From Escherichia coli (GTDB taxonomy: Bacteria > Pseudomonadota > Gammaproteobacteria > Enterobacterales > Enterobacteriaceae): a DNA stretch of 64,000 nt. The notes beneath the pieces were generated by a model. The model ran no database searches, had not been told where the DNA came from, and saw nothing but the letters and a program-made list of their open reading frames with translations. Below, piece after piece: positions 2,518 to 64,000 of the stretch. The DNA lies in the NCBI RefSeq assembly GCF_024223415.1, contig NZ_CP100500.1. The stretch is one strand, 5' to 3'. The position numbers and the translations under genes were made by a program. Each line of letters opens with the position of its first letter. Within the stretch, counting starts at the first letter, position 1.

Positions 2518-4293
2518 TTAACGCTTGTACAACGGACCGTAGTTCTGGCAAGCGCGGTAATCCTGGCCTTCAATATCCATGCCGTGCGCAGCCCAGGCAG
2601 AAGGACGATACACTTTGGTCTCTTCAACGTTATGCATACATACCGGGATACGCAGCATGGAGGCGAGAGTGATAAAGTCTGCGCCAACGTGGCCGATGGT
2701 CAGAACCCCATGGTTAGCGCCCCAGTTCGCCATTACCGAGTACACATCCGTAAACGGCCCTTTACCGGTGAGGCGCGGTGCAAACCAGGTGGTTGGCCAG
2801 GTTGAGTTGGTACGTTTGTTGAGGATGTCATGCACATCCTTCGGCAATTCCACGCTCCAGCCTTCCGCGATTTGCAGTACCGGTCCCAGGCCTTTGATGA
2901 TGTTGACACGAGTCATGGTGAACGGGACGCCGCCTTCGGTAAGGAAGCGGGAAGAGTAACCGCCGCCACGGAAGTATTCGTGGATCGCCGGGCACCATTC
3001 GGTAGCGGCGAGGCAAGCGTCAGCCTCTTGCTGAGAGATTTCCCAGTGTGGCTTCATCGTCGGGTTACCTTCGCTGTCGCGTTGTTTACAGGAACCGTCC
3101 AGCGCAGCAGAACCGGAGTTGATCAAATGGATGATGCCGTGTTCTGCCAGTCCATCCAGTTTATGCCCCGTTACACGCTCAATTGCTTCTGGTGACCAGT
3201 AGGTACGCACATCGGCAAATACCTGAGCGGTGCCGGTGAGCTGGTGACCCATTAGCATTGCCACGCCGTTAAGACTGTCGTTTTCGGTCGCCACGACAAA
3301 GGGTTCGCGCACGCCATTCCAGTCAAATGAACTGTTAAGGATCGCTTCGGCGGTGTCGCCATTGGGATATTGATCGGTCCAGTGGCGTTGTCCCTGGAAG
3401 CCCGCAGCGATGGCGTTGTAGCCAAGTGATTCTTCCACGCGACCAATATCGGCCAGTTTGCTGTTGCCTTGCATCATGTCGCGGATACACATCGCCATCA
3501 GTAAACTTTCGCGCAGAACTGCGCGGCTTTGCTCGGCATTGCGTTGATACTGTTTGTTATTTTCATCTTCGCCATAGCGGAAGTTTTTATCAGCCCAGGC
3601 CAGTGCCATTTCCAGTTCGGCTTCGTCGTAAATCTTCTGATCGATACGGCGACGCAGTTCGGTCATATCCACCGCCTGGACTTTCATTCCCAGCCAGGAT
3701 TCAAAGAAGTTGTGATCAACAATAGAACCGGCGATACCCATCGAAACGCCGCCCAGCGACAGATAGCTTTTACCTTTCATGCTGGCGACGGCCAAACCGG
3801 CGCGGGCAAAGCGCAGCAGTTTTTCTTCAACATCGGCAGGAATCGATGTGTCATCGGCATCCTGAACGTCATGACCGTAAATGGAGAATGCCGGGATGCC
3901 TTTCTGGCTGTGAGCTGCCAGAGCCGCTGCCAGGTAAACAGCGCCGGGGCGTTCAGTGCCGTTAAAGCCCCAAATGGCTTTCGGGCGGGTTGGATCCATG
4001 TCGATGGTTTCACTGCCATAGCACCAGCAAGGCGTTACCGTAATGGTGAGGCCTACATTCTGGCTGCTGAATTTTTCTTCGCAAGCAGCGGCTTCAGCCA
4101 TACCCGCGATACAGGTATCGGAAATGACACACTCGACGGCAGCTCCGCAGGCATGGCGCAGTTTCTCGGTCAGCAGTGCGGCCGTAGCTTTCGCCATATT
4201 CATTGTTTGTTCTTCAAGCGACTCACGAACACCCATGCGACGACCGTCAATAACCGGGCGGATACCAATTTTCGGTAAGCTGATTTTTTTCAT
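2518..4293 (-). CDS. fucI: L-fucose isomerase
   Basis: 591-aa [22 protein letters not shown]...; length and sequence match FucI as recalled. Confidence 0.95.
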
Positions 4294-26225: not shown

Positions 26226-28460
26226 ATGGTTGCGGTAAGAAGTGCACATATCAATAAGGCTGGTGAATTTGATCCGGAAAAATGGATCGCAAGTCTGGGT
26301 ATTACCAGCCAGAAGTCGTGTGAGTGCTTAGCCGAAACCTGGGCGTATTGTCTGCAACAGACGCAGGGGCATCCGGATGCCAGTCTGTTATTGTGGCGTG
26401 GTGTTGAGATGGTGGAGATCCTCTCGACATTAAGTATGGACATTGACACGCTGCGGGCGGCGCTGCTTTTCCCTCTGGCTGATGCCAACGTAGTCAGCGA
26501 AGATGTGCTGCGTGAGAGCGTCGGTAAGTCGGTCGTTAACCTTATTCACGGCGTGCGTGATATGGCGGCGATCCGCCAGCTGAAAGCGACGCACACTGAT
26601 TCTGTTTCCTCCGAACAGGTCGATAACGTTCGCCGGATGTTATTGGCGATGGTCGATGATTTTCGCTGCGTGGTCATCAAACTGGCGGAGCGTATTGCTC
26701 ATCTGCGTGAAGTAAAAGATGCGCCGGAAGATGAACGCGTACTGGCGGCAAAAGAGTGCACCAATATCTACGCGCCGCTGGCGAACCGTCTTGGGATTGG
26801 GCAACTGAAATGGGAGCTGGAAGATTACTGCTTCCGTTATCTCCACCCGACCGAATACAAACGCATCGCAAAACTGTTGCATGAACGCCGTCTCGACCGC
26901 GAACACTATATCGAAGAGTTTGTCGGTCATCTGCGCGCTGAGATGAAAGCTGAAGGCGTTAAAGCTGAAGTGTATGGTCGTCCGAAACACATCTACAGCA
27001 TCTGGCGCAAAATGCAGAAAAAGAACCTCGCCTTCGATGAGCTGTTTGATGTGCGTGCGGTACGTATTGTCGCCGAGCGTTTACAGGATTGTTATGCCGC
27101 ACTGGGGATAGTGCACACTCACTATCGCCACCTGCCGGATGAGTTTGATGATTACGTCGCTAACCCGAAACCAAACGGTTATCAGTCTATTCATACCGTG
27201 GTTCTGGGGCCGGGTGGAAAAACCGTTGAGATCCAAATCCGCACCAAACAGATGCATGAAGATGCAGAGTTGGGTGTTGCTGCGCACTGGAAATATAAAG
27301 AGGGCGCGGCAGCTGGCGGCGCACGTTCGGGACATGAAGACCGGATTGCCTGGCTGCGTAAACTGATTGCGTGGCAGGAAGAGATGGCTGATTCCGGCGA
27401 AATGCTCGACGAAGTACGTAGTCAGGTGTTTGACGACAGGGTGTATGTCTTTACGCCGAAAGGTGATGTCGTTGATTTGCCTGCGGGATCAACGCCGCTG
27501 GACTTCGCTTACCACATCCACAGTGATGTCGGACACCGCTGCATCGGGGCAAAAATTGGCGGGCGCATTGTGCCGTTCACCTACCAGCTGCAGATGGGCG
27601 ACCAGATTGAAATTATCACCCAGAAACAGCCGAACCCCAGCCGTGACTGGTTAAACCCAAACCTCGGTTACGTCACAACCAGCCGTGGGCGTTCGAAAAT
27701 TCACGCCTGGTTCCGTAAACAGGACCGTGACAAAAACATTCTGGCTGGGCGGCAAATCCTTGACGACGAGCTGGAACATCTGGGGATCAGCCTGAAAGAA
27801 GCAGAAAAACATCTGCTGCCGCGTTACAACTTCAATGATGTCGACGAGTTGCTGGCGGCGATTGGTGGCGGGGATATCCGTCTCAATCAGATGGTGAACT
27901 TCCTGCAATCGCAATTTAATAAGCCGAGTGCCGAAGAGCAGGACGCCGCCGCGCTGAAACAGCTTCAGCAAAAAAGCTACACGCCGCAAAACCGCAGTAA
28001 AGATAACGGTCGTGTGGTGGTTGAAGGTGTTGGTAACCTGATGCACCACATCGCGCGCTGCTGCCAGCCGATTCCTGGAGATGAGATTGTCGGCTTCATT
28101 ACCCAGGGACGCGGTATTTCAGTACACCGCGCCGATTGCGAACAACTGGCGGAACTGCGCTCCCATGCGCCAGAACGCATTGTTGACGCGGTATGGGGTG
28201 AGAGCTACTCCGCCGGATATTCGCTGGTGGTCCGCGTGGTGGCTAATGATCGTAGTGGGTTGTTACGTGATATCACGACCATTCTCGCCAATGAGAAAGT
28301 GAACGTGCTTGGCGTTGCCAGCCGTAGCGACACCAAACAGCAACTGGCGACCATCGACATGACCATTGAGATTTACAACCTGCAAGTGCTGGGTCGCGTG
28401 CTGGGTAAACTGAACCAGGTGCCGGATGTTATCGACGCGCGTCGGTTGCACGGGAGTTAG
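26226..28460 (+). CDS. relA: GTP pyrophosphokinase, (p)ppGpp synthetase I
   Basis: 744-aa ORF MVAVRSAHINKAGEFDPEKWIASLG...; RelA/SpoT synthetase, TGS and ACT regions. Confidence 0.96.
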   Translation: MVAVRSAHINKAGEFDPEKWIASLGITSQKSCECLAETWAYCLQQTQGHPDASLLLWRGVEMVEILSTLSMDIDTLRAALLFPLADANVVSEDVLRESVGKSVVNLIHGVRDMAAIRQLKATHTDSVSSEQVDNVRRMLLAMVDDFRCVVIKLAERIAHLREVKDAPEDERVLAAKECTNIYAPLANRLGIGQLKWELEDYCFRYLHPTEYKRIAKLLHERRLDREHYIEEFVGHLRAEMKAEGVKAEVYGRPKHIYSIWRKMQKKNLAFDELFDVRAVRIVAERLQDCYAALGIVHTHYRHLPDEFDDYVANPKPNGYQSIHTVVLGPGGKTVEIQIRTKQMHEDAELGVAAHWKYKEGAAAGGARSGHEDRIAWLRKLIAWQEEMADSGEMLDEVRSQVFDDRVYVFTPKGDVVDLPAGSTPLDFAYHIHSDVGHRCIGAKIGGRIVPFTYQLQMGDQIEIITQKQPNPSRDWLNPNLGYVTTSRGRSKIHAWFRKQDRDKNILAGRQILDDELEHLGISLKEAEKHLLPRYNFNDVDELLAAIGGGDIRLNQMVNFLQSQFNKPSAEEQDAAALKQLQQKSYTPQNRSKDNGRVVVEGVGNLMHHIARCCQPIPGDEIVGFITQGRGISVHRADCEQLAELRSHAPERIVDAVWGESYSAGYSLVVRVVANDRSGLLRDITTILANEKVNVLGVASRSDTKQQLATIDMTIEIYNLQVLGRVLGKLNQVPDVIDARRLHGS

Positions 28461-28475
28461 GCCGAAACTTGCTCG

Positions 28476-28520
28476 TATCTACAATGTAGATTGATATATA
28501 CTGTATCTACATATGATAGC
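28476..28520. promoter_or_regulatory. mazEF promoter with alternating-palindrome operator
   Basis: ATCTACAATGTAGAT plus a further ATCTACAT arm, so the arms can pair in alternative registers; immediately upstream of mazE. Confidence 0.7.
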
Positions 28521-28537
28521 GGTTTGAGGAAAGGGTT

Positions 28538-28786
28538 ATGATCCACAGTAGCGTAAAGCGTTGGGGAAATTCACCGGCGGTGCGGATCCCGGCTACGTTA
28601 ATGCAGGCGCTCAATCTGAATATTGATGATGAAGTGAAGATTGACCTGGTGGATGGCAAATTAATTATTGAGCCAGTGCGTAAAGAGCCCGTATTTACGC
28701 TTGCTGAACTGGTCAACGACATCACGCCGGAAAACCTCCACGATAATATCGACTGGGGAGAGCCGAAAGATAAGGAAGTCTGGTAA
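28538..28786 (+). CDS. mazE: Antitoxin MazE
   Basis: 82-aa [30 protein letters not shown]... (AbrB/SpoVT fold). Confidence 0.96.
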
Positions 28787-29121
28787 TGGTAAGCCGATAC
28801 GTACCCGATATGGGCGATCTGATTTGGGTTGATTTTGACCCGACAAAAGGTAGCGAGCAAGCCGGACATCGTCCGGCTGTTGTCCTGAGTCCGTTCATGT
28901 ACAACAACAAAACAGGTATGTGTCTGTGTGTTCCTTGTACAACGCAATCAAAAGGATATCCGTTCGAAGTTGTTTTATCCGGTCAGGAACGTGATGGCGT
29001 AGCGTTAGCTGATCAGGTAAAAAGTATCGCCTGGCGGGCAAAAGGAGCAACGAAGAAAGGAACGGTTGCCCCAGAGGAATTACAACTCATTAAAGCCAAA
29101 ATTAACGTACTGATTGGGTAG
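28786..29121 (+). CDS. mazF: mRNA interferase toxin MazF
   Basis: 111-aa [38 protein letters not shown]...; start overlaps mazE stop. Confidence 0.96.
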   Translation: MVSRYVPDMGDLIWVDFDPTKGSEQAGHRPAVVLSPFMYNNKTGMCLCVPCTTQSKGYPFEVVLSGQERDGVALADQVKSIAWRAKGATKKGTVAPEELQLIKAKINVLIG

Positions 29122-29192
29122 GTGTTACTAACTCACTTCTATTCTGGTCACAGGTTTCCACCTGACAGACCCGCAATTTTCAGGACATTCTA

Positions 29193-29984
29193 ATGAATCA
29201 AATTGACCGTTTGCTCACTATTATGCAGCGCCTGCGCGACCCGGAAAACGGCTGCCCGTGGGATAAAGAGCAGACATTTTCTTCTATTGCGCCTTACACC
29301 CTTGAAGAAACCTACGAGGTGCTGGACGCTATTGCCCGCGAAGACTTTGACGATCTGCGCGGTGAACTCGGCGATCTGCTGTTCCAGGTGGTGTTTTACG
29401 CACAAATGGCCCAGGAAGAAGGGCGCTTTGATTTTAATGATATTTGCGCCGCGATTAGCGATAAATTAGAACGCCGTCATCCACATGTTTTTGCTGACGG
29501 TTCTGCCGGAAACAGCCGCGAAGTTCTCGCCCGTTGGGAGGAGATCAAAACCGAAGAGCGCGCGCAGAAAGCGCAGCATTCGGCGCTGGACGATATTCCT
29601 CGTAGTTTACCCGCCTTAATGCGTGCGCAAAAAATCCAGAAACGTTGCGCCAACGTTGGCTTCGATTGGACGACGCTTGGTCCGGTAGTCGATAAAGTCT
29701 ACGAAGAGATCGACGAGGTGATGTACGAAGCGCGGCAGGCTGTTGTCGACCAGGCTAAACTGGAGGAGGAAATGGGGGACCTGCTATTTGCCACGGTCAA
29801 TCTGGCTCGTCATTTAGGGACAAAAGCGGAAATCGCATTGCAAAAAGCGAACGAAAAATTCGAGCGTCGTTTTCGCGAAGTGGAGCGTATTGTTGCCGCG
29901 CGTGGACTGGAAATGACAGGTGTTGACCTCGAAACAATGGAAGAAGTCTGGCAACAGGTAAAACGGCAGGAAATTGATCTCTAA
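29193..29984 (+). CDS. mazG: Nucleoside triphosphate pyrophosphohydrolase MazG
   Basis: 263-aa ORF with tandem MazG domains. Confidence 0.93.
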   Translation: MNQIDRLLTIMQRLRDPENGCPWDKEQTFSSIAPYTLEETYEVLDAIAREDFDDLRGELGDLLFQVVFYAQMAQEEGRFDFNDICAAISDKLERRHPHVFADGSAGNSREVLARWEEIKTEERAQKAQHSALDDIPRSLPALMRAQKIQKRCANVGFDWTTLGPVVDKVYEEIDEVMYEARQAVVDQAKLEEEMGDLLFATVNLARHLGTKAEIALQKANEKFERRFREVERIVAARGLEMTGVDLETMEEVWQQVKRQEIDL

Positions 29985-38060: not shown

Positions 38061-38760
38061 GAGTTCCCCGCGCTAGCGGGGATAAACCGGCTGGATACCG
38101 ATCAATTCAATATCGTTTTACGAGTTCCCCGCGCTAGCGGGGATAAACCGGAATACCGATTCATAACGGCGGAAATGTGGATGAGTTCCCCGCGCTAGCG
38201 GGGATAAACCGGTTAATGATGTCAGTGGCGGTTTTCGTATCGCGAGTTCCCCGCGCTAGCGGGGATAAACCGAGTGAGGCAATCAAATGACCCGCCCGCA
38301 ATTAGAGTTCCCCGCGCCAGCGGGGATAAACCGTAAATCCCTCGCGCATCGAGTCAAATGTCGGAGAGTTCCCCGCGCCAGCGGGGATAAACCGGTCGCT
38401 GGAACGGGGCGAATAAAGAGGGGCTCGAGTTCCCCGCGCCAGCGGGGATAAACCGACAGCTCTTTCCCGTCGTTATCCAGTTGGTAAGAGTTCCCCGCGC
38501 CAGCGGGGATAAACCATATGATTCACGAATTACAGGAAACCAGCCGCCGAGTTCCCCGCGTCAGCGGGGGTAAACCGCTATCGGGGTGATTCTGCCAATG
38601 CTCAGAGTGGTGTTCCCCGCGCCAGCGGGGATAAACCGAGCGTTTGCTCCGGGTGGAATAACCCTGGCGGGTGTTCCCCGCTCCAGCGGGGATAAACCGT
38701 TTGCTGGAACCCAAAACTCAGCGCACAGGTTGTGTTCCCCGCGCCAGCGGGGATAAACCA
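38061..38760 (+). CRISPR. Type I-E CRISPR array, 12 repeats and 11 spacers (CRISPR2.3-equivalent locus between queE and ygcE)
   Basis: 29-nt repeat GAGTTCCCCGCGCCAGCGGGGATAAACCG with 32-nt spacers at an exact 61-bp period; repeats start at 38061, 38122, 38183, 38244, 38305, 38366, 38427, 38488, 38549, 38610, 38671, 38732; repeats 1 to 4 carry GCGCTAGC, repeats 10 to 12 begin GTGTT, repeats 8 and 12 end in A. Confidence 0.97.
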
Positions 38761-39229: not shown

Positions 39230-39351
39230 CAGGGATAAACCGAACTAGTTAAAGTTTTTATTATGTTCCCTGCATCAGCGGGGATAAACCGGACTTGTTA
39301 TCATTTTTTAAGTTGTCGAACTTATGTTCCCCGCGCCAGCGGGGATAACCA
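39230..39351 (+). CRISPR. Degenerate CRISPR remnant (CRISPR2.2-like): one truncated and two degenerate repeats
   Basis: CAGGGATAAACCG (partial), ATGTTCCCTGCATCAGCGGGGATAAACCG (5 mismatches) and ATGTTCCCCGCGCCAGCGGGGATAACCA (1-nt deletion); spacers of 20 and 32 nt. Confidence 0.75.
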
Positions 39352-55192: not shown

Positions 55193-55456
55193 ATATTGCC
55201 GGATAAATTAAACGCCTCTGTCAGAAATGATGGGTGCGTTTTTATTTTGCGAGCAGCATTCCTGATTTTAAACGTGAACGCCGCTGGAAGAATTATCAGG
55301 TATAGAATGGCGTCGGGTGCTTGAGGCTGTCTGGCGTTAAGCATTCGCGAGGTTCCAGATGGACAAAAGCCCCAGGCGATATTTCTATCAACCTGAGGCC
55401 AGCGTTCGAACCTAAGCAATTCGGATGTTAGTCTCTTCTTTGCAGGGAGGCAAGAC

Positions 55457-55609
55457 ATGCTAACAAAATATGCCCTTGTGGCAATCATAGTACTGTGTTG
55501 TACAGTACTGGGATTCACGCTCATGGTAGGCGACTCGTTGTGTGAGTTGAGTATCAGAGAACGTGGTATGGAGTTTAAGGCTGTTCTCGCTTACGAATCG
55601 AAGAAGTAG
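55457..55609 (+). CDS. hokX: Hok/Gef-family type I toxin (hokX-like), 50 aa
   Basis: Below the ORF-track size cutoff; GGGAGG SD 6 nt upstream; [50 protein letters not shown] = one TM helix plus the Hok signature (SLCE...R...AYES). Confidence 0.8.
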
Positions 55610-55801: not shown

Positions 55802-58501
55802 ATGCGTAAATATCCTTTAAGTTTACTGAAGGATAAAAATATTGTGACTTTCTTTGATTTCTGGGGAAAAACCCGACGCGACGAGAAAGAAGGGGGTGAC
55901 GACTATCACCTTCTTTGCTGGCATTCGCTGGATGTGGCCGCGATGGGCTATTTAATGGTTAAAAGAAATTGCTTCGGGCTGGCTGATTATTTCCGTCAAT
56001 TAGGGATTTCTGACAAGGAACAGGCGGCTCAATTTTTCGCCTGGTTGTTGTGCTGGCACGATATTGGAAAATTTGCCCGCTCATTTCAGCAACTTTACCT
56101 GCACCCACAACTCAAGGTTCCGGAAGGCGCAAGAAAGAATTACGAAAAGATCTCTCATTCAACGCTGGGCTACTGGCTGTGGCATCATTATTTAAGTGAA
56201 TGCGAAGAATTGCTTCCTGCCTCTTCACTCTCTACTCGCAAACTTAAACGTGTAATAGCGATGTGGATGCCCATGACTACCGGGCATCATGGTCGCCCGC
56301 CTGACCGTATTGATGAACTGGATAATTTTCTGCCTGAAGACAAAGCTGCCGCGCGAGATTTTCTCCTTGAAATCAAGCCACTGTTTCCGCAGCTAGAGAT
56401 CCCCGCATTCTGGGATGATGACGAGGGCGTTGAACTTATAAAACAACTTTCCTGGTATATCTCTGCAACCGTCGTACTTGCAGACTGGACAGGATCGTCA
56501 ACGCGATTTTTTCCACGCGTCGCACAGACAATGGATATTGAAGATTACTGGCAAAAGGCTTTAGTTCAGGCTCAAAACGCATTAACCGTCTTTCCTCCAA
56601 AAGCAGAAACCGCGCCTTTCACCGGAATTAATACGCTGTTTCCTTTTATTGAGAATCCGAAACCGTTACAGCAAAAGGTGCTGGATCTGGATATCAGCCA
56701 GCCAGGACCGCAGTTATTTATTCTGGAGGATGTAACCGGCGCAGGTAAAACAGAAGCGGCGCTTATCCTGGCACACAGGTTGATGGCTGCGGGTAAAGCT
56801 CAGGGTTTGTTTTTTGGCCTGCCAACAATGGCAACGGCCAATGCCATGTACGATCGGCTGGTCAAAACCTGGCTTTCTTTCTATTCGCCAGAATCCCGCC
56901 CCAGCCTGGTGCTGGCACACAGTGCCCGCACATTAATGGACCGCTTTAATGAATCACTCTGGTCCGGTGATTTAGTCGGGTCAGAAGAACCGGATGAACA
57001 AACGTTCAGTCAGGGATGTGCGGCCTGGTTTGCCGACAGTAACAAGAAGGCGTTGCTGGCTGAAATTGGCGTCGGCAAGCTGGATCAGGCGATGATGGCA
57101 GTGATGCCGTTTAAACATAATAATCTGCGGCTTCTGGGGTTGAGTAACAAAATCCTGCTGGCTGATGAGATCCACGCCTGTGACGCTTACATGTCGTACA
57201 TTCTTGAAGGGTTGATTGAGCGACAGGTGCGTGGCGGAAACAGCGTCATTTTGCTTTCTGCTACGTTATCTCAACAGCAGCGCGACAAACTTGTCGCCGC
57301 CTTTGCGCGTGGCACAGAGGGCCAGCAAGAAGCTCCGTTCCTGGAAAAGGATGATTACCCCTGGCTGACGCATGTCACGAAATCCGATGTGCATTCGCAC
57401 CGGGTAGCGACGCGCAAAGACGTTGAGCGTAGCGTGAGCGTGGGTTGGCTTCATAGCGAACAAGAATGTATTGCGCGTATCGAATCAGCGGTAAGTCAGG
57501 GGAAATGCATCGCCTGGATCCGGAATTCTGTCGATGACGCTATTAAGGTTTATCGTCAGTTACTTGCCCGCGGCGTCATTCCTGCTTCCAGCCTTTCACT
57601 TTTTCATAGCCGCTTTGCTTTTAGCGATCGCCAGCGAATTGAAACGGAAACGCTGGCACGCTTTGGTAAAAATTGTAGTTTAAAAAGATCATCTCAAGTC
57701 ATTGTTTGTACACAAGTAATTGAGCAAAGTGTGGATATTGACCTGGACGAAATGATCTCCGACCTGGCCCCCATTGATTTGCTGATCCAGCGAGCGGGGC
57801 GATTACAACGGCATATTCGCGATATTAATGGTCAGTTAAAGCGTGATGGAAAAGACGAGCGTTCCCCTCCTGAATTGCTGATTCTGGCCCCCGTCTGGGA
57901 CGACGCTCCTGGTGACGAATGGTTCGGCAGTGCCATGCGTAACAGTGCATATGTCTACCCGGATCATGGGCGAATCTGGCTGACCCAGCGTGTGCTGCGT
58001 GAGCAAGGCGTTATTCAGATGCCACACTCAGCCCGCCTTCTTATTGAATCAGTCTACGGTGAGGACGTGGTAATGCCGGACGGATTTGCCCGCAGCGAGC
58101 AGGAGCAAGTGGGCAAATATTACTGCGATCGCTCAATGGCTAAAAAGTTTGTGCTGAACTTCAGGCCCGGCTATGCCGCCAATATCAACGATTACCTTCC
58201 GGAAAAGCTGTCGACACGTCTGGCTGAGGAATCTGTTTCCCTGTGGCTGGCTAGCTGTATTAACGGCGTGGTGAAGCCTTATGCCAGCGGTGCTCACGCA
58301 TGGGAAATGAGCGTTGTCAGAGTGCGCCGAAGCTGGTGGAAAAAACATCGGGATGAGTTTTCTTTACTGGAAGGGGAAGTGTTAAGGCAGTGGTGCATTG
58401 AACAGCGGCAAGATCCGGAGATGGCAAACGTGATTTTAGTCACCGATGACGAAAGTTGCGGGTATTCGGCTACGGAAGGATTGATTGGCAAGGTTGATTG
58501 A
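55802..58501 (+). CDS. cas3: Cas3 helicase-nuclease (HD domain plus superfamily-2 helicase), type I-E
   Basis: 899-aa ORF; HD motif (HLLCWHSLDVAA...WHDIGKF), Walker A (TGAGKTEAA), DEAH-like (LLADEIHA); start may be internal (GTG at 55844) because the ATG at 55802 lacks an SD. Confidence 0.92.
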   Translation: MRKYPLSLLKDKNIVTFFDFWGKTRRDEKEGGDDYHLLCWHSLDVAAMGYLMVKRNCFGLADYFRQLGISDKEQAAQFFAWLLCWHDIGKFARSFQQLYLHPQLKVPEGARKNYEKISHSTLGYWLWHHYLSECEELLPASSLSTRKLKRVIAMWMPMTTGHHGRPPDRIDELDNFLPEDKAAARDFLLEIKPLFPQLEIPAFWDDDEGVELIKQLSWYISATVVLADWTGSSTRFFPRVAQTMDIEDYWQKALVQAQNALTVFPPKAETAPFTGINTLFPFIENPKPLQQKVLDLDISQPGPQLFILEDVTGAGKTEAALILAHRLMAAGKAQGLFFGLPTMATANAMYDRLVKTWLSFYSPESRPSLVLAHSARTLMDRFNESLWSGDLVGSEEPDEQTFSQGCAAWFADSNKKALLAEIGVGKLDQAMMAVMPFKHNNLRLLGLSNKILLADEIHACDAYMSYILEGLIERQVRGGNSVILLSATLSQQQRDKLVAAFARGTEGQQEAPFLEKDDYPWLTHVTKSDVHSHRVATRKDVERSVSVGWLHSEQECIARIESAVSQGKCIAWIRNSVDDAIKVYRQLLARGVIPASSLSLFHSRFAFSDRQRIETETLARFGKNCSLKRSSQVIVCTQVIEQSVDIDLDEMISDLAPIDLLIQRAGRLQRHIRDINGQLKRDGKDERSPPELLILAPVWDDAPGDEWFGSAMRNSAYVYPDHGRIWLTQRVLREQGVIQMPHSARLLIESVYGEDVVMPDGFARSEQEQVGKYYCDRSMAKKFVLNFRPGYAANINDYLPEKLSTRLAEESVSLWLASCINGVVKPYASGAHAWEMSVVRVRRSWWKKHRDEFSLLEGEVLRQWCIEQRQDPEMANVILVTDDESCGYSATEGLIGKVD

Positions 58502-58598
58502 GATGTCTGCGACAGGACTCTCTGAATAGTTGATATACAGAAAAGGATGGAAAGATGGACAACCGACCTGGGATGGTCTTTTTTACGAGAGGATGCGT

Positions 58599-60161
58599 AT
58601 GAACTCGTTTTCACTTCTGACAACCTCGTGGTTGCCCGTTCGTTTTAAAGACGGAACGACAGGCAAACTGGCACCAGTCGATCTGGCTGATGAAAATGTT
58701 GTCGATATCGCTGCGCCGCGGGCAGATCTCCAGGGTGCGGCATGGCAGTTTTTGCTGGGGCTACTACAAACCAGCTTCGCGCCAAAAGATCATCGTCGTT
58801 GGGATGATATCTGGGAAGACGGACTGGAATCTGAAAAGCTACGGGAAGCATTGCTGTCATTAGAACACGCTTTCCAGTTTGGGCCAGATTCCCCTTCATT
58901 TATGCAGGATTTCGAGGCGCTCACGGGAGATAAAGTTCAGATCGCTTCGTTACTGCCTGAGATTCCCGGCGCTCAAACAACGAAGTTTAATAAAGACCAT
59001 TTTATCAAGCGTGGTGTAACGGAATACCTGTGTCCTCATTGTTCAGCGTTAGCCCTGTTCTCCCTACAGTTAAATGCACCGTCAGGCGGCAAAGGCTATC
59101 GCACCGGTTTACGCGGCGGTGGGCCGATGACCACTCTTATTGAATTACAGGAATATCAGGGCAATCAACAAACACCCTTATGGCGCAAACTGTGGCTCAA
59201 TGTGATGCCGCAGGATGAAGCCGACTTACCGCTACCCAAAAAATTTGACGATCTGATTTTCCCCTGGCTTGGCCCGACGCGTACCAGCGAACTGGCCGGT
59301 GCGGTGGTAACCGATGATCAGGTTAATAAACTCCAGGCGTACTGGGGAATGCCACGGCGTATTCGTATTGATTTTAATACCACGACAGTCGGCAACTGCG
59401 ATATTTGCGGCGAGCAGAACGACGCGCTCCTGAACCTGATGACGACCAAAAATTACGGCGCTAACTATGCCATGTGGCAGCATCCCTTAACGCCTTACCG
59501 TATACCACTTAAAGAGGGTGGCGAGTTTTACTCCGTTAAACCACAACCGGGCGGTTTAATCTGGCGCGACTGGTTAGGCCTTATCGAAACGGGTAAATCA
59601 GAAAACAATACGGAACTTCCCGCGCTGGTGGTGAAACTCTTTAATGCCAGCAGTCTGAAACAGGCAAAAGTGGGCCTATGGGGATTTGGTTATGATTTCG
59701 ACAATATGAAAGCGCGCTGTTGGTACGAACACCATTTCCCGCTGCTGCTCAATAAAAAAGAAGGCCAGATACCGAAACTGCGGCTGGCTGCGCAAACGGC
59801 TTCACGGATTCTGAGTCTGTTACGGAGTGCATTGAAAGAAGCGTGGTTCTCCGATCCAAAAGGTGCACGGGGTGATTTCAGTTTTGTGGATATCGACTTC
59901 TGGAACAAAACTCAGCATCGCTTCCTGAGGTTAGTGCGCCAAATTGAAGAAGGTCAGGATCCAGATGAATTACTCGGCAAATGGCAAAAGGAAATTTGGT
60001 TATTTGCGCGTCAGGATTTTGACGAGCGTGTATTCACCAATCCTTATGAGCCCGTTGATTTGAAACGCGTCATGACCGCACGCAAGAAATATTTTACAAC
60101 ATCGGCGGAGAAGCAAAATGCTAAAGCCGCCAGGGAGAAAAAGCAGGAGGCTGCTGAATGA
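58599..60161 (+). CDS. cse1: Cascade large subunit Cse1 (CasA / Cas8e)
   Basis: ORF track begins at a TTG (58530); the ATG at 58599 (MNSFSLLTTSWLPVRFKDG...) has a GAGAGG SD; Cse1 N-terminal signature; 520 aa. Confidence 0.88.
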   Translation: MNSFSLLTTSWLPVRFKDGTTGKLAPVDLADENVVDIAAPRADLQGAAWQFLLGLLQTSFAPKDHRRWDDIWEDGLESEKLREALLSLEHAFQFGPDSPSFMQDFEALTGDKVQIASLLPEIPGAQTTKFNKDHFIKRGVTEYLCPHCSALALFSLQLNAPSGGKGYRTGLRGGGPMTTLIELQEYQGNQQTPLWRKLWLNVMPQDEADLPLPKKFDDLIFPWLGPTRTSELAGAVVTDDQVNKLQAYWGMPRRIRIDFNTTTVGNCDICGEQNDALLNLMTTKNYGANYAMWQHPLTPYRIPLKEGGEFYSVKPQPGGLIWRDWLGLIETGKSENNTELPALVVKLFNASSLKQAKVGLWGFGYDFDNMKARCWYEHHFPLLLNKKEGQIPKLRLAAQTASRILSLLRSALKEAWFSDPKGARGDFSFVDIDFWNKTQHRFLRLVRQIEEGQDPDELLGKWQKEIWLFARQDFDERVFTNPYEPVDLKRVMTARKKYFTTSAEKQNAKAAREKKQEAAE

Positions 60162-60694
60162 GTATTGTAAAAGAGGAGCACAAAGCCACGCTGCGTAAAT
60201 GGCACGAAGAGTTGCAGGCTAAACGCGGCAATCGTGCCAGTCTGCGGCGTAGCACAACGGTTAATGATGTTTGCTTGTCAGAAGGGTTTCGTTCTCTGCT
60301 GATGCAGACCCACACTTTGTGGAAAATTGAAGCACAAGAGTGGCGTTTTACCGCACTGGCGCTGGTCGCCGCAGTTAGCGCCAATGTAAAAGCCATTGAT
60401 GAACGGCAGCCTTTTGCCGCGCAGCTGGCGGCGGTAATGTCGGAGGGGCGTTTTACTCGCCTGTCGGCAGTAAAAACGCCGGATGATTTACTGCGTCAGT
60501 TACGTCGCGCGGTCAAATTATTAAACGGTTCCGTCAATCTTATCTCTTTGGCAGAAGATATTTTCCGCTGGTGTCAGGAGAGCGACGACCTGCTCAATCA
60601 TCACCGCCGCCAGCAGCGGCCAACCGAATTTATCCGTATCCGCTGGGCACTGGAATATTACCAGGCTGGCGACGCCGATAACGAACAAAATTAA
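60158..60694 (+). CDS. cse2: Cascade small subunit Cse2 (CasB)
   Basis: 178-aa ORF; ATGA overlap with cse1; position in operon. Confidence 0.85.
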   Translation: MSIVKEEHKATLRKWHEELQAKRGNRASLRRSTTVNDVCLSEGFRSLLMQTHTLWKIEAQEWRFTALALVAAVSANVKAIDERQPFAAQLAAVMSEGRFTRLSAVKTPDDLLRQLRRAVKLLNGSVNLISLAEDIFRWCQESDDLLNHHRRQQRPTEFIRIRWALEYYQAGDADNEQN

Positions 60695-60708
60695 TAAAGG
60701 ACTATCTC

Positions 60709-61764
60709 ATGACAACATTTATTCAGCTTCATTTGTTAACCGCTTACCCTGCTGCCAACCTTAACCGTGATGATACTGGTGCGCCAAAAACTGTGGTACT
60801 GGGTGGTGCAACGCGTCTGCGCGTTTCCTCACAAAGTCTGAAACGTGCGTGGCGCACTTCTGCACTTTTTGAACAGGCACTGGCGGGCCATATTGGTATT
60901 CGCAGTGGGCGAATTGCGCGTGAGGCGGCAACTATCCTGATTGAGAAAGGAATCGAAGAGAAAAAAGCCATCGAATGGGCGGCAAAAATTGCGGATTATC
61001 TTGGGAAAGCTAAAAACGACAAAAAACCAAAAGATCCGCTCACTAACGCCGAAACTGAACAATTAGTTCATATCAGCCCGGCAGAATTTGACGCCGTAAA
61101 AGCGCTGGCCCATCAACTGGCAGAAGAAAAGCGCGCGCCAATAGAGGAAGATCTCGCGTTGTTACGTAAAGACCGTATAGCGGTAGATATCGCTATGTTT
61201 GGTCGTATGCTGGCGAATAAACCTGAGTTTAATGTTGAAGCCGCCTGCCAGGTCGCGCATGCGTTTGGTGTCAGTGAAACGATTGTCGAAGATGATTTTT
61301 TCACCGCCGTTGATGATTTGCGCCAGGCCTCTGAAGATGCCGGTGCCGGGCATCTCGGAGAAACCGGATTCGGTTCAGCACTTTTCTACACCTATATCTG
61401 CATTGATAAAGATCTGCTGGTAGAAAACCTCGGCGGTGACGAAGCGTTAGCTAATCAGACCATACGCGCTTTTACGGAAGCCGCACTTAAAGTCTCCCCA
61501 ACCGGCAAACAGAACAGCTTTGCCAGCCGTGCCTACGCCTCCTGGGCGCTGGCAGAAAAAGGCACCGAACAACCGCGTTCTCTGGCGGCGGCTTTCTATG
61601 AACCCATTAATGGCACCCGGCAGTTAGATGTGGCGGTGCAGCGTATTACAACGCTTCGCGAAAACATGAATACGGTCTACGAACAGAAGACCGAATGCGT
61701 AAGTTTTGACGTGATGAACAAACAGGGAAGCATGAAGGACGTGCTGGACTTTATCTGCGCGTAA
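60709..61764 (+). CDS. cas7: Cascade backbone subunit Cas7 (CasC)
   Basis: 351-aa ORF MTTFIQLHLLTAYPAANLNRDDTGAPKTVVLGGATRLRVSSQSLKRAWR. Confidence 0.9.
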   Translation: MTTFIQLHLLTAYPAANLNRDDTGAPKTVVLGGATRLRVSSQSLKRAWRTSALFEQALAGHIGIRSGRIAREAATILIEKGIEEKKAIEWAAKIADYLGKAKNDKKPKDPLTNAETEQLVHISPAEFDAVKALAHQLAEEKRAPIEEDLALLRKDRIAVDIAMFGRMLANKPEFNVEAACQVAHAFGVSETIVEDDFFTAVDDLRQASEDAGAGHLGETGFGSALFYTYICIDKDLLVENLGGDEALANQTIRAFTEAALKVSPTGKQNSFASRAYASWALAEKGTEQPRSLAAAFYEPINGTRQLDVAVQRITTLRENMNTVYEQKTECVSFDVMNKQGSMKDVLDFICA

Positions 61765-61774
61765 GGGGCGGCTT

Positions 61775-62521
61775 ATGAGCCAATATCTGATTTTTCAGCT
61801 TCATGGGCCGATGGCATCCTGGGGCGTCGATGCTCCCGGCGAAGTGCGTCATACCCATGAACTGCCTTCGCGCTCAGCATTGCTGGGGTTACTGGCTGCC
61901 GGGGTAGGGATTCGGCGTGATGATACCGAACGATTAAACGCGTTTAACCGCCACTATTCACTGGTGGTTTGCGCCAGCCGTAACCCGCGCTGGGCACGGG
62001 ATTATCACACGGTCCAGATGCCAAAAGAGGTGCGTAAATCGCGTTATTTCAGCCGTCGCGAAGAGTTGAGCGATCCTGATCTTCTGAGCGCAATTATCTC
62101 CCGGCGCGACTACTACACCGATGCCTGGTGGATGGTGGCGGTGGCAACAACCCCCGATGCGCCTTACAGCCTTGAACAGTTGCAGGAAGGTTTACGTCAT
62201 CCGGTTTTTCCGCTTTATCTGGGGCGAAAAAGTCATCCGCTGGCATTACCACTCGCGCCGTTACTGATCGAAGGCAACGCGTCTGATGCCTTATGTAACG
62301 CATACCAACAGTATCAGGATAGTTTCCGCGAACTGAAAGTCTCACTCCCGAAACTTCAGGATGAATGCTGGTGGGAAGGGAAACACGACGGCCTGGTCGC
62401 GAGCAAAATATTACGTCGCCGGGATGTTCCTTTGAATCGTCAGCAGTGGCTGTTTGGGGAACGCACCGTCAATCAGGGGCCGTGGCTCAGCAAGGAGGAA
62501 CCATGTACCTCTCAAGAATAA
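61775..62521 (+). CDS. cas5: Cascade subunit Cas5 (CasD)
   Basis: 248-aa ORF MSQYLIFQLHGPMASWGVDAPGEVRHT... Confidence 0.9.
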   Translation: MSQYLIFQLHGPMASWGVDAPGEVRHTHELPSRSALLGLLAAGVGIRRDDTERLNAFNRHYSLVVCASRNPRWARDYHTVQMPKEVRKSRYFSRREELSDPDLLSAIISRRDYYTDAWWMVAVATTPDAPYSLEQLQEGLRHPVFPLYLGRKSHPLALPLAPLLIEGNASDALCNAYQQYQDSFRELKVSLPKLQDECWWEGKHDGLVASKILRRRDVPLNRQQWLFGERTVNQGPWLSKEEPCTSQE

Positions 62522-63153
62522 CCTTACATACCGGCCAGCTTTCGCCTGCGCAGTTGTTGCATCTGGTGGATCGCGGTGAATATGTGATGCATCAGTGGCT
62601 GTGGGATCTCTTCCCAGGCGGCAAAGAAAGGCAATTTCTTTATCGTCGGGAAGAACTCCAGGGCGCGTTTCGCTTTTTTGTCCTGTCGCAGGAACGCCCG
62701 GCGGAAAGTGAAATGTTCACCATCGAATGCCGACCATTTGCGTCGGAGTTGCGTACCGGACAATCGCTTTGTTTCAACCTGCGGGCGAATCCAACAATCT
62801 GTAAAGCGGGCAAGCGCCACGATCTGCTGATGGAAGCGAAACGGCAGGTGAGGGGGCAGGCGGAAGGAAGTGATGTCTGGTTGCATCAACAACAGGCAGC
62901 GCTGGACTGGCTGGCAGCGCAGGGGGAGAGAAGCGGTTTTACACTGCTGGATACCTCGGTTGATGCCTACCGACAACAGCAACTCCGGCGGGAAAACTCC
63001 CGACAACTGATCCAGTTCAGTAGCGTGGATTATACGGGGATGCTTACGGTCACCGATCCTGGGTTATTTCTGCAACGTCTGAGCCAGGGGTATGGCAAAA
63101 GCCGCGCGTTCGGCTGTGGTCTGATGCTGATCAAACCCGGAGCAGAGGCGTGA
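62503..63153 (+). CDS. cas6e: crRNA endoribonuclease Cas6e (CasE)
   Basis: ATG at 62503 with AGGAGG SD (MYLSRITLHTGQ..., 216 aa); C-terminal GCGLM motif; overlaps cas5 by 19 nt. Confidence 0.88.
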   Translation: MYLSRITLHTGQLSPAQLLHLVDRGEYVMHQWLWDLFPGGKERQFLYRREELQGAFRFFVLSQERPAESEMFTIECRPFASELRTGQSLCFNLRANPTICKAGKRHDLLMEAKRQVRGQAEGSDVWLHQQQAALDWLAAQGERSGFTLLDTSVDAYRQQQLRRENSRQLIQFSSVDYTGMLTVTDPGLFLQRLSQGYGKSRAFGCGLMLIKPGAEA

Positions 63154-64000
63154 CGTTTGTACCACTGAGTCCGATCCCGTTAAAAGATCGCACCTCTATG
63201 ATCTTCCTCCAGTACGGTCAAATCGACGTACTGGACGGCGCTTTCGTGCTGATCGACAAAACCGGGATCCGCACGCACATTCCGGTGGGATCGGTCGCCT
63301 GCATTATGCTCGAACCGGGAACGAGAGTTTCCCACGCGGCGGTGCATCTGGCCGCCACGGTGGGAACACTGCTGGTCTGGGTCGGTGAAGCGGGCGTTCG
63401 CGTTTACTCTTCCGGACAACCCGGAGGGGCGCGGGCAGATAAATTACTCTACCAGGCAAAGCTGGCTTTAACGGAAGATCTACGCCTGAAGGTGGTGCGC
63501 AAAATGTATGAATTACGTTTTCGTGAGCCACCGCCAGCTCGCCGTTCAGTGGATCAGCTACGGGGAATTGAGGGATCCCGCGTTCGCCAGACCTATGCAT
63601 TACTGGCGAAACAATATGGTGTGAAATGGAATGGTCGCAAATACGATCCTAAAGACTGGGAAAAAGGCGATGTTGTGAATCGCTGCATCAGTGCTGCCAC
63701 ATCATGTCTGTACGGTATTTCTGAAGCGGCAGTATTAGCCGCGGGATATGCGCCCGCTATTGGATTTATTCATAGTGGCAAACCGCTTTCATTTGTTTAT
63801 GACATAGCCGATATCATTAAATTTGATTCGGTTGTGCCAAAGGCATTTGAAATAGCGGCAAGACACCCGGCAGAATCTGATAAAGAAGTCAGATTAGCCT
63901 GTCGCGATATTTTCCGTAGCACTAAGTTAACGGGCAAATTAATACCGTTAATTGAGGAAGTCCTTGCTGCAGGTGAAATTGAACCACCACAACCCGCGCC
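63150..64000 (+). CDS. cas1: Cas1 integrase; N-terminal about 283 codons, 3' end beyond window
   Basis: GTG at 63150 (GTGA overlap with the cas6e stop); translation VTFVPLSPIPLKDRTSMIFLQYGQIDVLDGAFVLIDKTGIRTHIPVGSVACIMLEPGTRVSHAAV...; absent from ORF track because there is no stop in the window. Confidence 0.92.
   Translation, partial: MTFVPLSPIPLKDRTSMIFLQYGQIDVLDGAFVLIDKTGIRTHIPVGSVACIMLEPGTRVSHAAVHLAATVGTLLVWVGEAGVRVYSSGQPGGARADKLLYQAKLALTEDLRLKVVRKMYELRFREPPPARRSVDQLRGIEGSRVRQTYALLAKQYGVKWNGRKYDPKDWEKGDVVNRCISAATSCLYGISEAAVLAAGYAPAIGFIHSGKPLSFVYDIADIIKFDSVVPKAFEIAARHPAESDKEVRLACRDIFRSTKLTGKLIPLIEEVLAAGEIEPPQPA

Follow-up and report, generated by a model that had tools for sequence, protein, structure and literature searches.

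The mazEF locus and its flanking genes

The locus lies in a 64-kb stretch of Escherichia coli DNA (the window, by which we mean the whole of the stretch that was analysed) and consists of an antitoxin gene and a toxin gene carried on the same strand as relA and mazG. The four genes, with the evidence on which each was assigned, are the following.

26226 to 28460, + strand: relA, GTP diphosphokinase, 744 aa, the upstream gene (ORF; Pfam HD_4, RelA_SpoT, TGS and ACT; annotation of strain SCU-316)
28538 to 28786, + strand: mazE, antitoxin, 82 aa (ORF list, Pfam, NCBIfam, PDB match)
28786 to 29121, + strand: mazF, toxin, 111 aa (ORF list, Pfam, NCBIfam, PDB match)
29193 to 29984, + strand: mazG, nucleoside triphosphate pyrophosphohydrolase, 263 aa, the downstream gene (ORF, Pfam MazG, SCU-316 annotation)

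An earlier note on this DNA, made from the sequence alone, had described an intact mazEF module flanked by relA upstream and mazG downstream and embedded in their transcription unit. The ORFs, their domains and the annotated RefSeq record of strain SCU-316, which is 100% identical over the locus and names both genes mazE and mazF, all agree with these flanks. The position of the module within the relA-mazG unit is supported by the gene order and by a search of the + strand between relA, mazE, mazF and mazG, in which no terminator-like site was found; co-transcription in a relA-mazEFG operon has been described (PMC7167474, PMC4803016), and mazG is among the co-transcribed genes (PMC4803016).

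A frameshift or a truncation, which would speak against the intactness of the module, was looked for in mazE and mazF and none was found, both ORFs being full length. The TAA stop codon of mazE (28784-28786) and the ATG start codon of mazF (28786-28788) have base 28786 in common (TAATG), so that the overlap of the toxin start with the antitoxin stop was read correctly in the earlier note, and the Shine-Dalgarno sequence of mazE (GAGG) is located at 28527-28530. The mazE ORF was matched by Pfam PF04014 (MazE_antitoxin; 52.9 bits for a cut-off of 24.7) and by the NCBIfam equivalog NF007312 (MazE; 194 bits for a cut-off of 113), and the mazF ORF by PF02452 (PemK_toxin; 82.7 bits for a cut-off of 23.1) and by the equivalog NF007386 (MazF; 225 bits for a cut-off of 120). 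No family of the PADLOC-DB v2 anti-phage defence models matched MazE or MazF.

The PDB search showed that MazE is identical at 81 of 82 residues to the K-12 crystal structures 1MVF and 1UB4, the sole change being E69D, and that MazF is identical at 110 of 111 residues to the K-12 structures 3NFC, 5CR2, 5CK9 and 1UB4, the sole change being R86K; both are conservative substitutions at the sequence level. MazE has the architecture of an AbrB/SpoVT-type N-terminal DNA-binding domain with a disordered MazF-binding tail. Its DNA-contacting residues are K7, R8, W9, N11 and R16 (PMC4333400), and all five are present. The catalytic residues of MazF, which the earlier note had proposed as a check on the 111-aa ORF, were examined and E24, R29 and T52 are all in place. 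Arg-29 and Thr-52 of E. coli MazF contact the scissile phosphate and are the cleavage residues (PMC10864209), and E24A is the standard low-activity mutant (PMC5888573, PMC12557383). With about 99% identity to the characterised proteins, the ACA-specific RNase activity of MazF, its neutralisation by MazE and the lability of MazE to ClpAP and Lon would be expected to apply to this module as well.

Comparison with the K-12 locus

The mazEF locus of K-12 (chpAI/chpAK; b2783/b2782) has the same relA-mazE-mazF-mazG order and the same 1-nt overlap of stop and start codons. Alignment to characterised mazEF promoters, the other check put forward in the earlier note, showed that the operator and promoter of the window are base-for-base the same as those of K-12 MG1655 over 28469-28537. 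Over the 860-bp alignment, the two sequences differ by the two missense changes given above (MazE E69D and MazF R86K), by one synonymous change in relA and by four synonymous changes in mazF. The window also has a C instead of a T at position 28468, three base changes immediately ahead of the mazG start and one extra G directly after the mazF stop (29122). The synonymous G at position 29064 (A in K-12) removes one ACA, which leaves eight ACA sites in the mazF of the window, compared with the nine of K-12 mazF (PMC5888573).

Arms, palindromes and MazE sites of the operator

The operator was delimited by a repeat search and by comparison with oligonucleotides from the isothermal titration calorimetry (ITC) study of Zorzini et al. 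2015 (PMC4333400).

28472 to 28521, + strand: mazEF operator 'cab' (exact match to the 50 specified oligo bases of Zorzini et al. 2015)
28477 to 28483, + strand: arm 1, ATCTACA, inside site 'c' (28475-28493) (repeat search)
28485 to 28491, + strand: arm 2, TGTAGAT, the middle arm, complementary to arms 1 and 3 (repeat search)
28492 to 28503, + strand: site 'a' core, TGATATATACTG, containing the palindrome ATATAT (28494-28499) (PMC4333400)
28505 to 28511, + strand: arm 3, ATCTACA, inside site 'b' (28496-28514) (repeat search)

The region singled out in the earlier note starts at 28476, one base before arm 1, and three copies of the arm had been read there as two overlapping palindromes. The repeat search over 28440-28560 bears this out, since arm 1 and arm 2 form an inverted pair that is 100% complementary with a 1-nt gap, and ATGTAGAT (28484-28491) and ATCTACAT (28505-28512) form a second pair that is 100% complementary with a 13-nt gap. 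The palindromes are thus of 7 bp with a gap of 1 nt and of 8 bp with a gap of 13 nt and, because both use arm 2, the middle arm belongs to both. The search also returned GTATCTACA, 9 nt long, as a direct repeat (28475 and 28503). The overall abundance of the heptamer in the window is unremarkable (7 occurrences on both strands of the 64 kb, versus 4.3 ± 2.3 expected from shuffles); three of the seven sites fall within 35 bp, for which a simulation of seven random sites in 64 kb gave P ~2.5e-5.

The 'cab', 'c', 'a' core and 'b' oligonucleotides (PMC4333400) map exactly and uniquely onto the window. The identification of this region as the characterised mazEF operator is upheld by the exact match of 28472-28521 to the 'cab' oligonucleotide and by the identity to K-12.

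The earlier note went further and took the two palindromes to be mutually exclusive. Of this, the common middle arm is real and the exclusivity is not retained, later ITC and NMR work having given three independent sites for MazE dimers. Mutually exclusive palindromes are the 2001 model of Marianovsky et al., relayed by PMC4803016, where the operator of mazEF is called the 'alternating palindrome': the middle arm would pair with either arm 1 or arm 3, and MazE-MazF would bind either of the two exclusive operator states. The geometry of the window, with arm 2 in both the 7-bp and the 8-bp palindromes, is real and fits that published description (PMC4803016), and yet we hold this model to be unlikely. 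ITC and NMR on the same sequence showed three MazE dimers binding c, a and b independently, with n = 3 on 'cab', and the highest affinity was found at site 'a', which is centred on ATATAT, in the interval separating arm 2 from arm 3, and does not correspond to any of the arms (PMC4333400). Furthermore, many palindrome mutations left MazEF binding unaffected (PMC4803016). Folded as single-stranded DNA, the operator strand reached -4.2 kcal/mol (z = -0.65), a value that 47 of 200 shuffles also attained, which gives no basis for a structural switch; a stable DNA hairpin or cruciform was rejected on this result. Since the operator strand is not unusually stable as a hairpin, its symmetry would have its importance in the DNA duplex, as dyads for protein binding. 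In the current operator model, MazE has three independent sites, one of which is the ATATAT core, and this model refines the first reading. MazF raises the affinity of MazE for the operator at ratios near 1:1 and abolishes binding when in large excess (PMC4333400).

Promoters, candidate Fis site and antisense RNA

Three further features were placed on or around the operator.

28460 to 28474, + strand: candidate Fis site, GGCCGAAAcTTGCTC (GGCCGAAAyTTGCTC), just upstream of the operator (consensus match by eye)
28497 to 28517, + strand: candidate -10 hexamers, TATACT at 28497-28502 (possibly P2) and TATGAT at 28512-28517 (possibly P3) (by eye)
28427 to 28826, - strand: antisense RNA aMEF (K-12 ameF, b4844) (colinear homology to the K-12 annotation)

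Transcription from the published promoters P2 and P3 begins at two points within the operator, 13 nt from each other; MazE represses both promoters, and MazE-MazF does so more strongly (PMC4803016). The two candidate hexamers start 15 bp apart, a spacing that we tentatively regard as broadly compatible with the P2 and P3 starts. The consensus promoter scan called neither the published P2 and P3 nor the two hexamers found by eye. Because the promoter and operator are identical to those of K-12, we infer the same autoregulation of P2 and P3 by MazE and MazE-MazF.

A Fis site located upstream of the alternating palindrome activates transcription (PMC4803016). In the candidate Fis site of the window, base 28468 is a C, as it also is in the soil isolate SC455, whereas it is a T in K-12 and in strain 150; the T of K-12 gives an AAATTT centre. 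The presence of a cytosine at position 28468 would weaken the A/T-rich core of the candidate site and could change activation.

The ameF gene of the K-12 RefSeq record is 400 nt long and spans the 5' end of mazF, the whole of mazE, the operator and the 3' end of relA. This region is colinear between K-12 and the window and, because the K-12 alignment is without indels in the interval, aMEF can be placed on the minus strand from 28826 (5' end, within mazF) to 28427 (3' end, within relA). Expression of mazEF is reported to be stimulated, without a need for RNase III, by the weak and non-canonical promoter that aMEF has within mazF (PMC8749433).

Distribution in E. coli and the empty site

An 851-bp query of the mazEF locus was compared with 5,426 complete E. 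coli genomes. The whole query was found in 4,415 of the 5,426, always on the chromosome and in one copy per genome; identity over the locus was at least 99% in 421 genomes and reached 100% in strain SCU-316. The 40-bp c-a-b core of the operator was exact in 4,346 of about 4,418 mazEF-positive genomes, and the 66 bp of operator and promoter were exact in 3,693 of 4,418. Two operator variants that were sampled differ from the window solely at positions 28518, 28520 and 28535, all of which are downstream of the arms. The synonymous mazF haplotype of the window is common to about 1,261-1,357 genomes, as counted with a 66-bp mazF coding query for which three SNPs relative to K-12 leave no 28-mer megablast seed, K-12-type alleles being therefore missed by this control.

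The relA and mazG flanks alone were matched in 1,007 of the 5,426 genomes, which lack mazEF. That many strains, such as UTI89, have an undisturbed relA-mazG pair has been reported (PMC7167474). In strain SCU-105, which has such an empty site, the sequence ceases to be homologous to the window 1-2 nt past the relA stop codon, and homology is regained some 40 nt ahead of the mazG start. These break points delimit the cassette, which includes its own promoter and operator.

about 28462 to 29150, + strand: mazEF cassette (presence/absence alignment with the empty site of SCU-105)

In the mazEF-less strains, 28462-29150 is replaced by a 60-bp filler (SCU-105, L001:1563-1622). The filler is single-copy and confined to the 1,007 mazEF-less genomes, ST131 included; since it is absent from all of the mazEF-positive E. 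coli genomes, mazEF and the filler are mutually exclusive alleles. Its predicted fold is a pair of very stable, adjacent hairpins (-28.9 kcal/mol, z = -6.4). Although mazEF-less strains have already been published, the structured 60-bp filler may be undescribed. That the double hairpin is a functional RNA element, and that the gain of the mazEF cassette of about 690 bp amounted to its replacement and not to a neutral insertion, is a conjecture to which we give roughly one chance in four. If the filler were a functional RNA, a terminator, an attenuator or a processing or stability signal between relA and mazG would be the candidates, and the gain of mazEF would have rewired the coupling of mazG expression to relA.

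Relatives of the module and identity of the locus

Searches of phage records returned no match to the mazEF cassette, and the sole near-identical match among plasmid records was a 4.8-Mb chromosome filed as a plasmid (H23). Carriage of this cassette by mobile elements was consequently rejected, no phage match and no true plasmid carrier having been found. Relatives with about 70% nucleotide identity are present on another 141 plasmids, for the most part conjugative plasmids of Klebsiella, Providencia and Proteus. The relatives on K. pneumoniae pDD02172-3 and Rahnella aceris pPlas1 have the same antitoxin-toxin order and an overlapping junction; their MazF proteins are 69-71% identical to that of the window, but their MazE proteins just 40-44%. 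They are located in conjugative backbones (traT/traD), whereas the E. coli module is located between relA and mazG.

The operators also differ. Upstream of mazE, the plasmid relatives have palindromes of 19-21 bp (Klebsiella and Rahnella; L031:608-667, L032:634-690), which in Rahnella are GTATCAACA-A-AGTTGACAC and GTATCATCA-T-TGTTGATAC. Two complete palindromes, that is, four arms, are thus found 38-39 bp apart on the plasmids, where E. coli has three arms and ATATAT. The half-site of the plasmid palindromes, GTATC(A/T)(A/T)CA, resembles the GTATCTACA of E. coli, and we speculate that the three-armed operator of E. coli could be a contracted form of a four-armed operator with two palindromes. 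The parD (kis-kid) system of R1 and chpBS of E. coli share the PemK/MazF toxin fold and the AbrB-type antitoxin with mazEF; they have a multi-site operator, and the stoichiometry of the antitoxin-toxin complex tunes repression (PMC4333400). Kid of R1 is distant from MazF in sequence (PDB match with E = 2e-8).

The three-arm arrangement was also looked for on its own, by scanning the pattern ATCTACA-N0-3-TGTAGAT-N8-20-ATCTACA over 100,044 species-representative genomes. The scan gave 25 matches in scattered taxa, when about 7 would be expected by chance (our own estimate, assuming a uniform base composition). No relative of MazE or MazF was detected near the 25 matches by tblastn at E <= 1, and we took them to be chance or unrelated occurrences rather than three-arm operators of other species. 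The pattern was not found in any of the Escherichia species-representative genomes: the representative of E. coli is probably a mazEF-less strain, and the sister species likely lack or vary the operator.

These comparisons bear on two other identities for the locus. Chromosomal toxin-antitoxin loci often decay, and a decayed or inactive remnant, with a pseudogenised toxin or an orphan antitoxin, would be in keeping with this tendency, with the one residue changed in each protein and with one ACA site fewer than in K-12. Against such a remnant, neither ORF is shortened, both exceed the equivalog cut-offs, their catalytic and DNA-binding residues are kept, the exact DNA is present in an annotated RefSeq genome where MazE and MazF have ordinary WP protein accessions (SCU-316), and 421 genomes are at least 99% identical over the locus; we consider decay very improbable. 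Still less probable is a paralogous or plasmid-type module of the PemK family (chpBS, pemIK/kis-kid or the mazEF of Klebsiella and Rahnella plasmids). The Pfam families are common to all of these systems and the MazF of the plasmid relatives reaches 69-71% identity, but the NCBIfam equivalogs for ChpS (33.2 bits for a cut-off of 101) and ChpB (53.5 bits for a cut-off of 129) remained below their cut-offs, identity of the plasmid MazE proteins does not go beyond 40-44% and a different, two-palindrome operator precedes their genes, and the locus is chromosomal between relA and mazG in 4,415 genomes, with no true plasmid carrier. The locus is almost certainly (probability of about 0.97) the type II toxin-antitoxin module mazEF (chpA) of the E. 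coli chromosome, complete and, on every criterion applied to its sequence, functional; no feature of the sequence speaks against this identification.

Proposed functioning and significance of the module

mazEF was the first chromosomal toxin-antitoxin system described. In the scheme that we propose for the allele of the window, transcription would start from the two closely spaced promoters inside the operator and would be supplemented by read-through from relA, continuing into mazG, and the translation of mazE and mazF would be coupled through the TAATG overlap. MazE would act as the labile antitoxin: in a MazF2-MazE2-MazF2 complex its C-terminal tail would thread over the MazF dimer, and the operator would be bound by its AbrB-type N-terminal dimer. 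MazE dimers are predicted to occupy three adjacent sites within 28475-28514, site c corresponding to the arm 1/arm 2 palindrome, site a to the ATATAT core and site b containing arm 3. MazF would strengthen the binding of MazE to the operator at balanced ratios and weaken it when in excess, resulting in negative autoregulation. Degradation of MazE by ClpAP or Lon would free MazF, a putative metal-independent endoribonuclease cutting single-stranded RNA at ACA by means of Arg-29 and Thr-52, and free MazF would then cleave mRNAs, including its own with the eight ACA sites of mazF, leading to translation arrest. The role of mazEF is contested, the proposals being programmed death, reversible stasis, phage defence or exclusion, and a selfish element (PMC7167474).

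The mazEF operator, the structures, the antisense RNA and the patchy distribution in E. coli are all already published. The value of the locus is that of a positive control, the module and its operator having been correctly recognised from raw sequence. From the present comparison, it is a naturally occurring allele (MazE D69, MazF K86) whose operator core shows essentially no variation in over 4,300 genomes.

Other features of the window

A CRISPR array of 12 type I-E repeats (GAGTTCCCCGCGCCAGCGGGGATAAACC) with a 61-bp period was located at 38061-38759, between queE and ygcE, and a small degenerate remnant array at 39261-39351, about 500 bp beyond the main one. The SCU-316 RefSeq record has no listed feature over this CRISPR stretch, and the offset between the window and SCU-316 in the CRISPR region is 57 bp. 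This offset and the difference in fucI given below show that the window belongs to a relative of SCU-316 and not to SCU-316 itself. The type I-E cas operon occupies 55802-64000 on the + strand, with cas1e running past the end of the window; its ORFs of 899 (cas3), 543, 178, 351, 248 and 262 aa correspond to the cas3-casA-casB-cas7e-cas5e-cas6e order of SCU-316. A second toxin-antitoxin locus, of type I, is found at 55315-55609 between cysH and cas3, where Rfam sok (RF01794, 110 bits) was matched at 55315-55472 and an intact 50-aa ORF of the Hok/Gef family is present at 55457-55609.

The window also contains a full-length CsrB sRNA (RF00018, 384 bits) at 15362-15721 on the + strand, and barA, the sensor kinase gene of CsrB, at 22064-24820 on the minus strand. 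The fucI gene, which is frameshifted according to the SCU-316 annotation, is an intact 591-aa ORF at 2518-4293 on the minus strand of the window.
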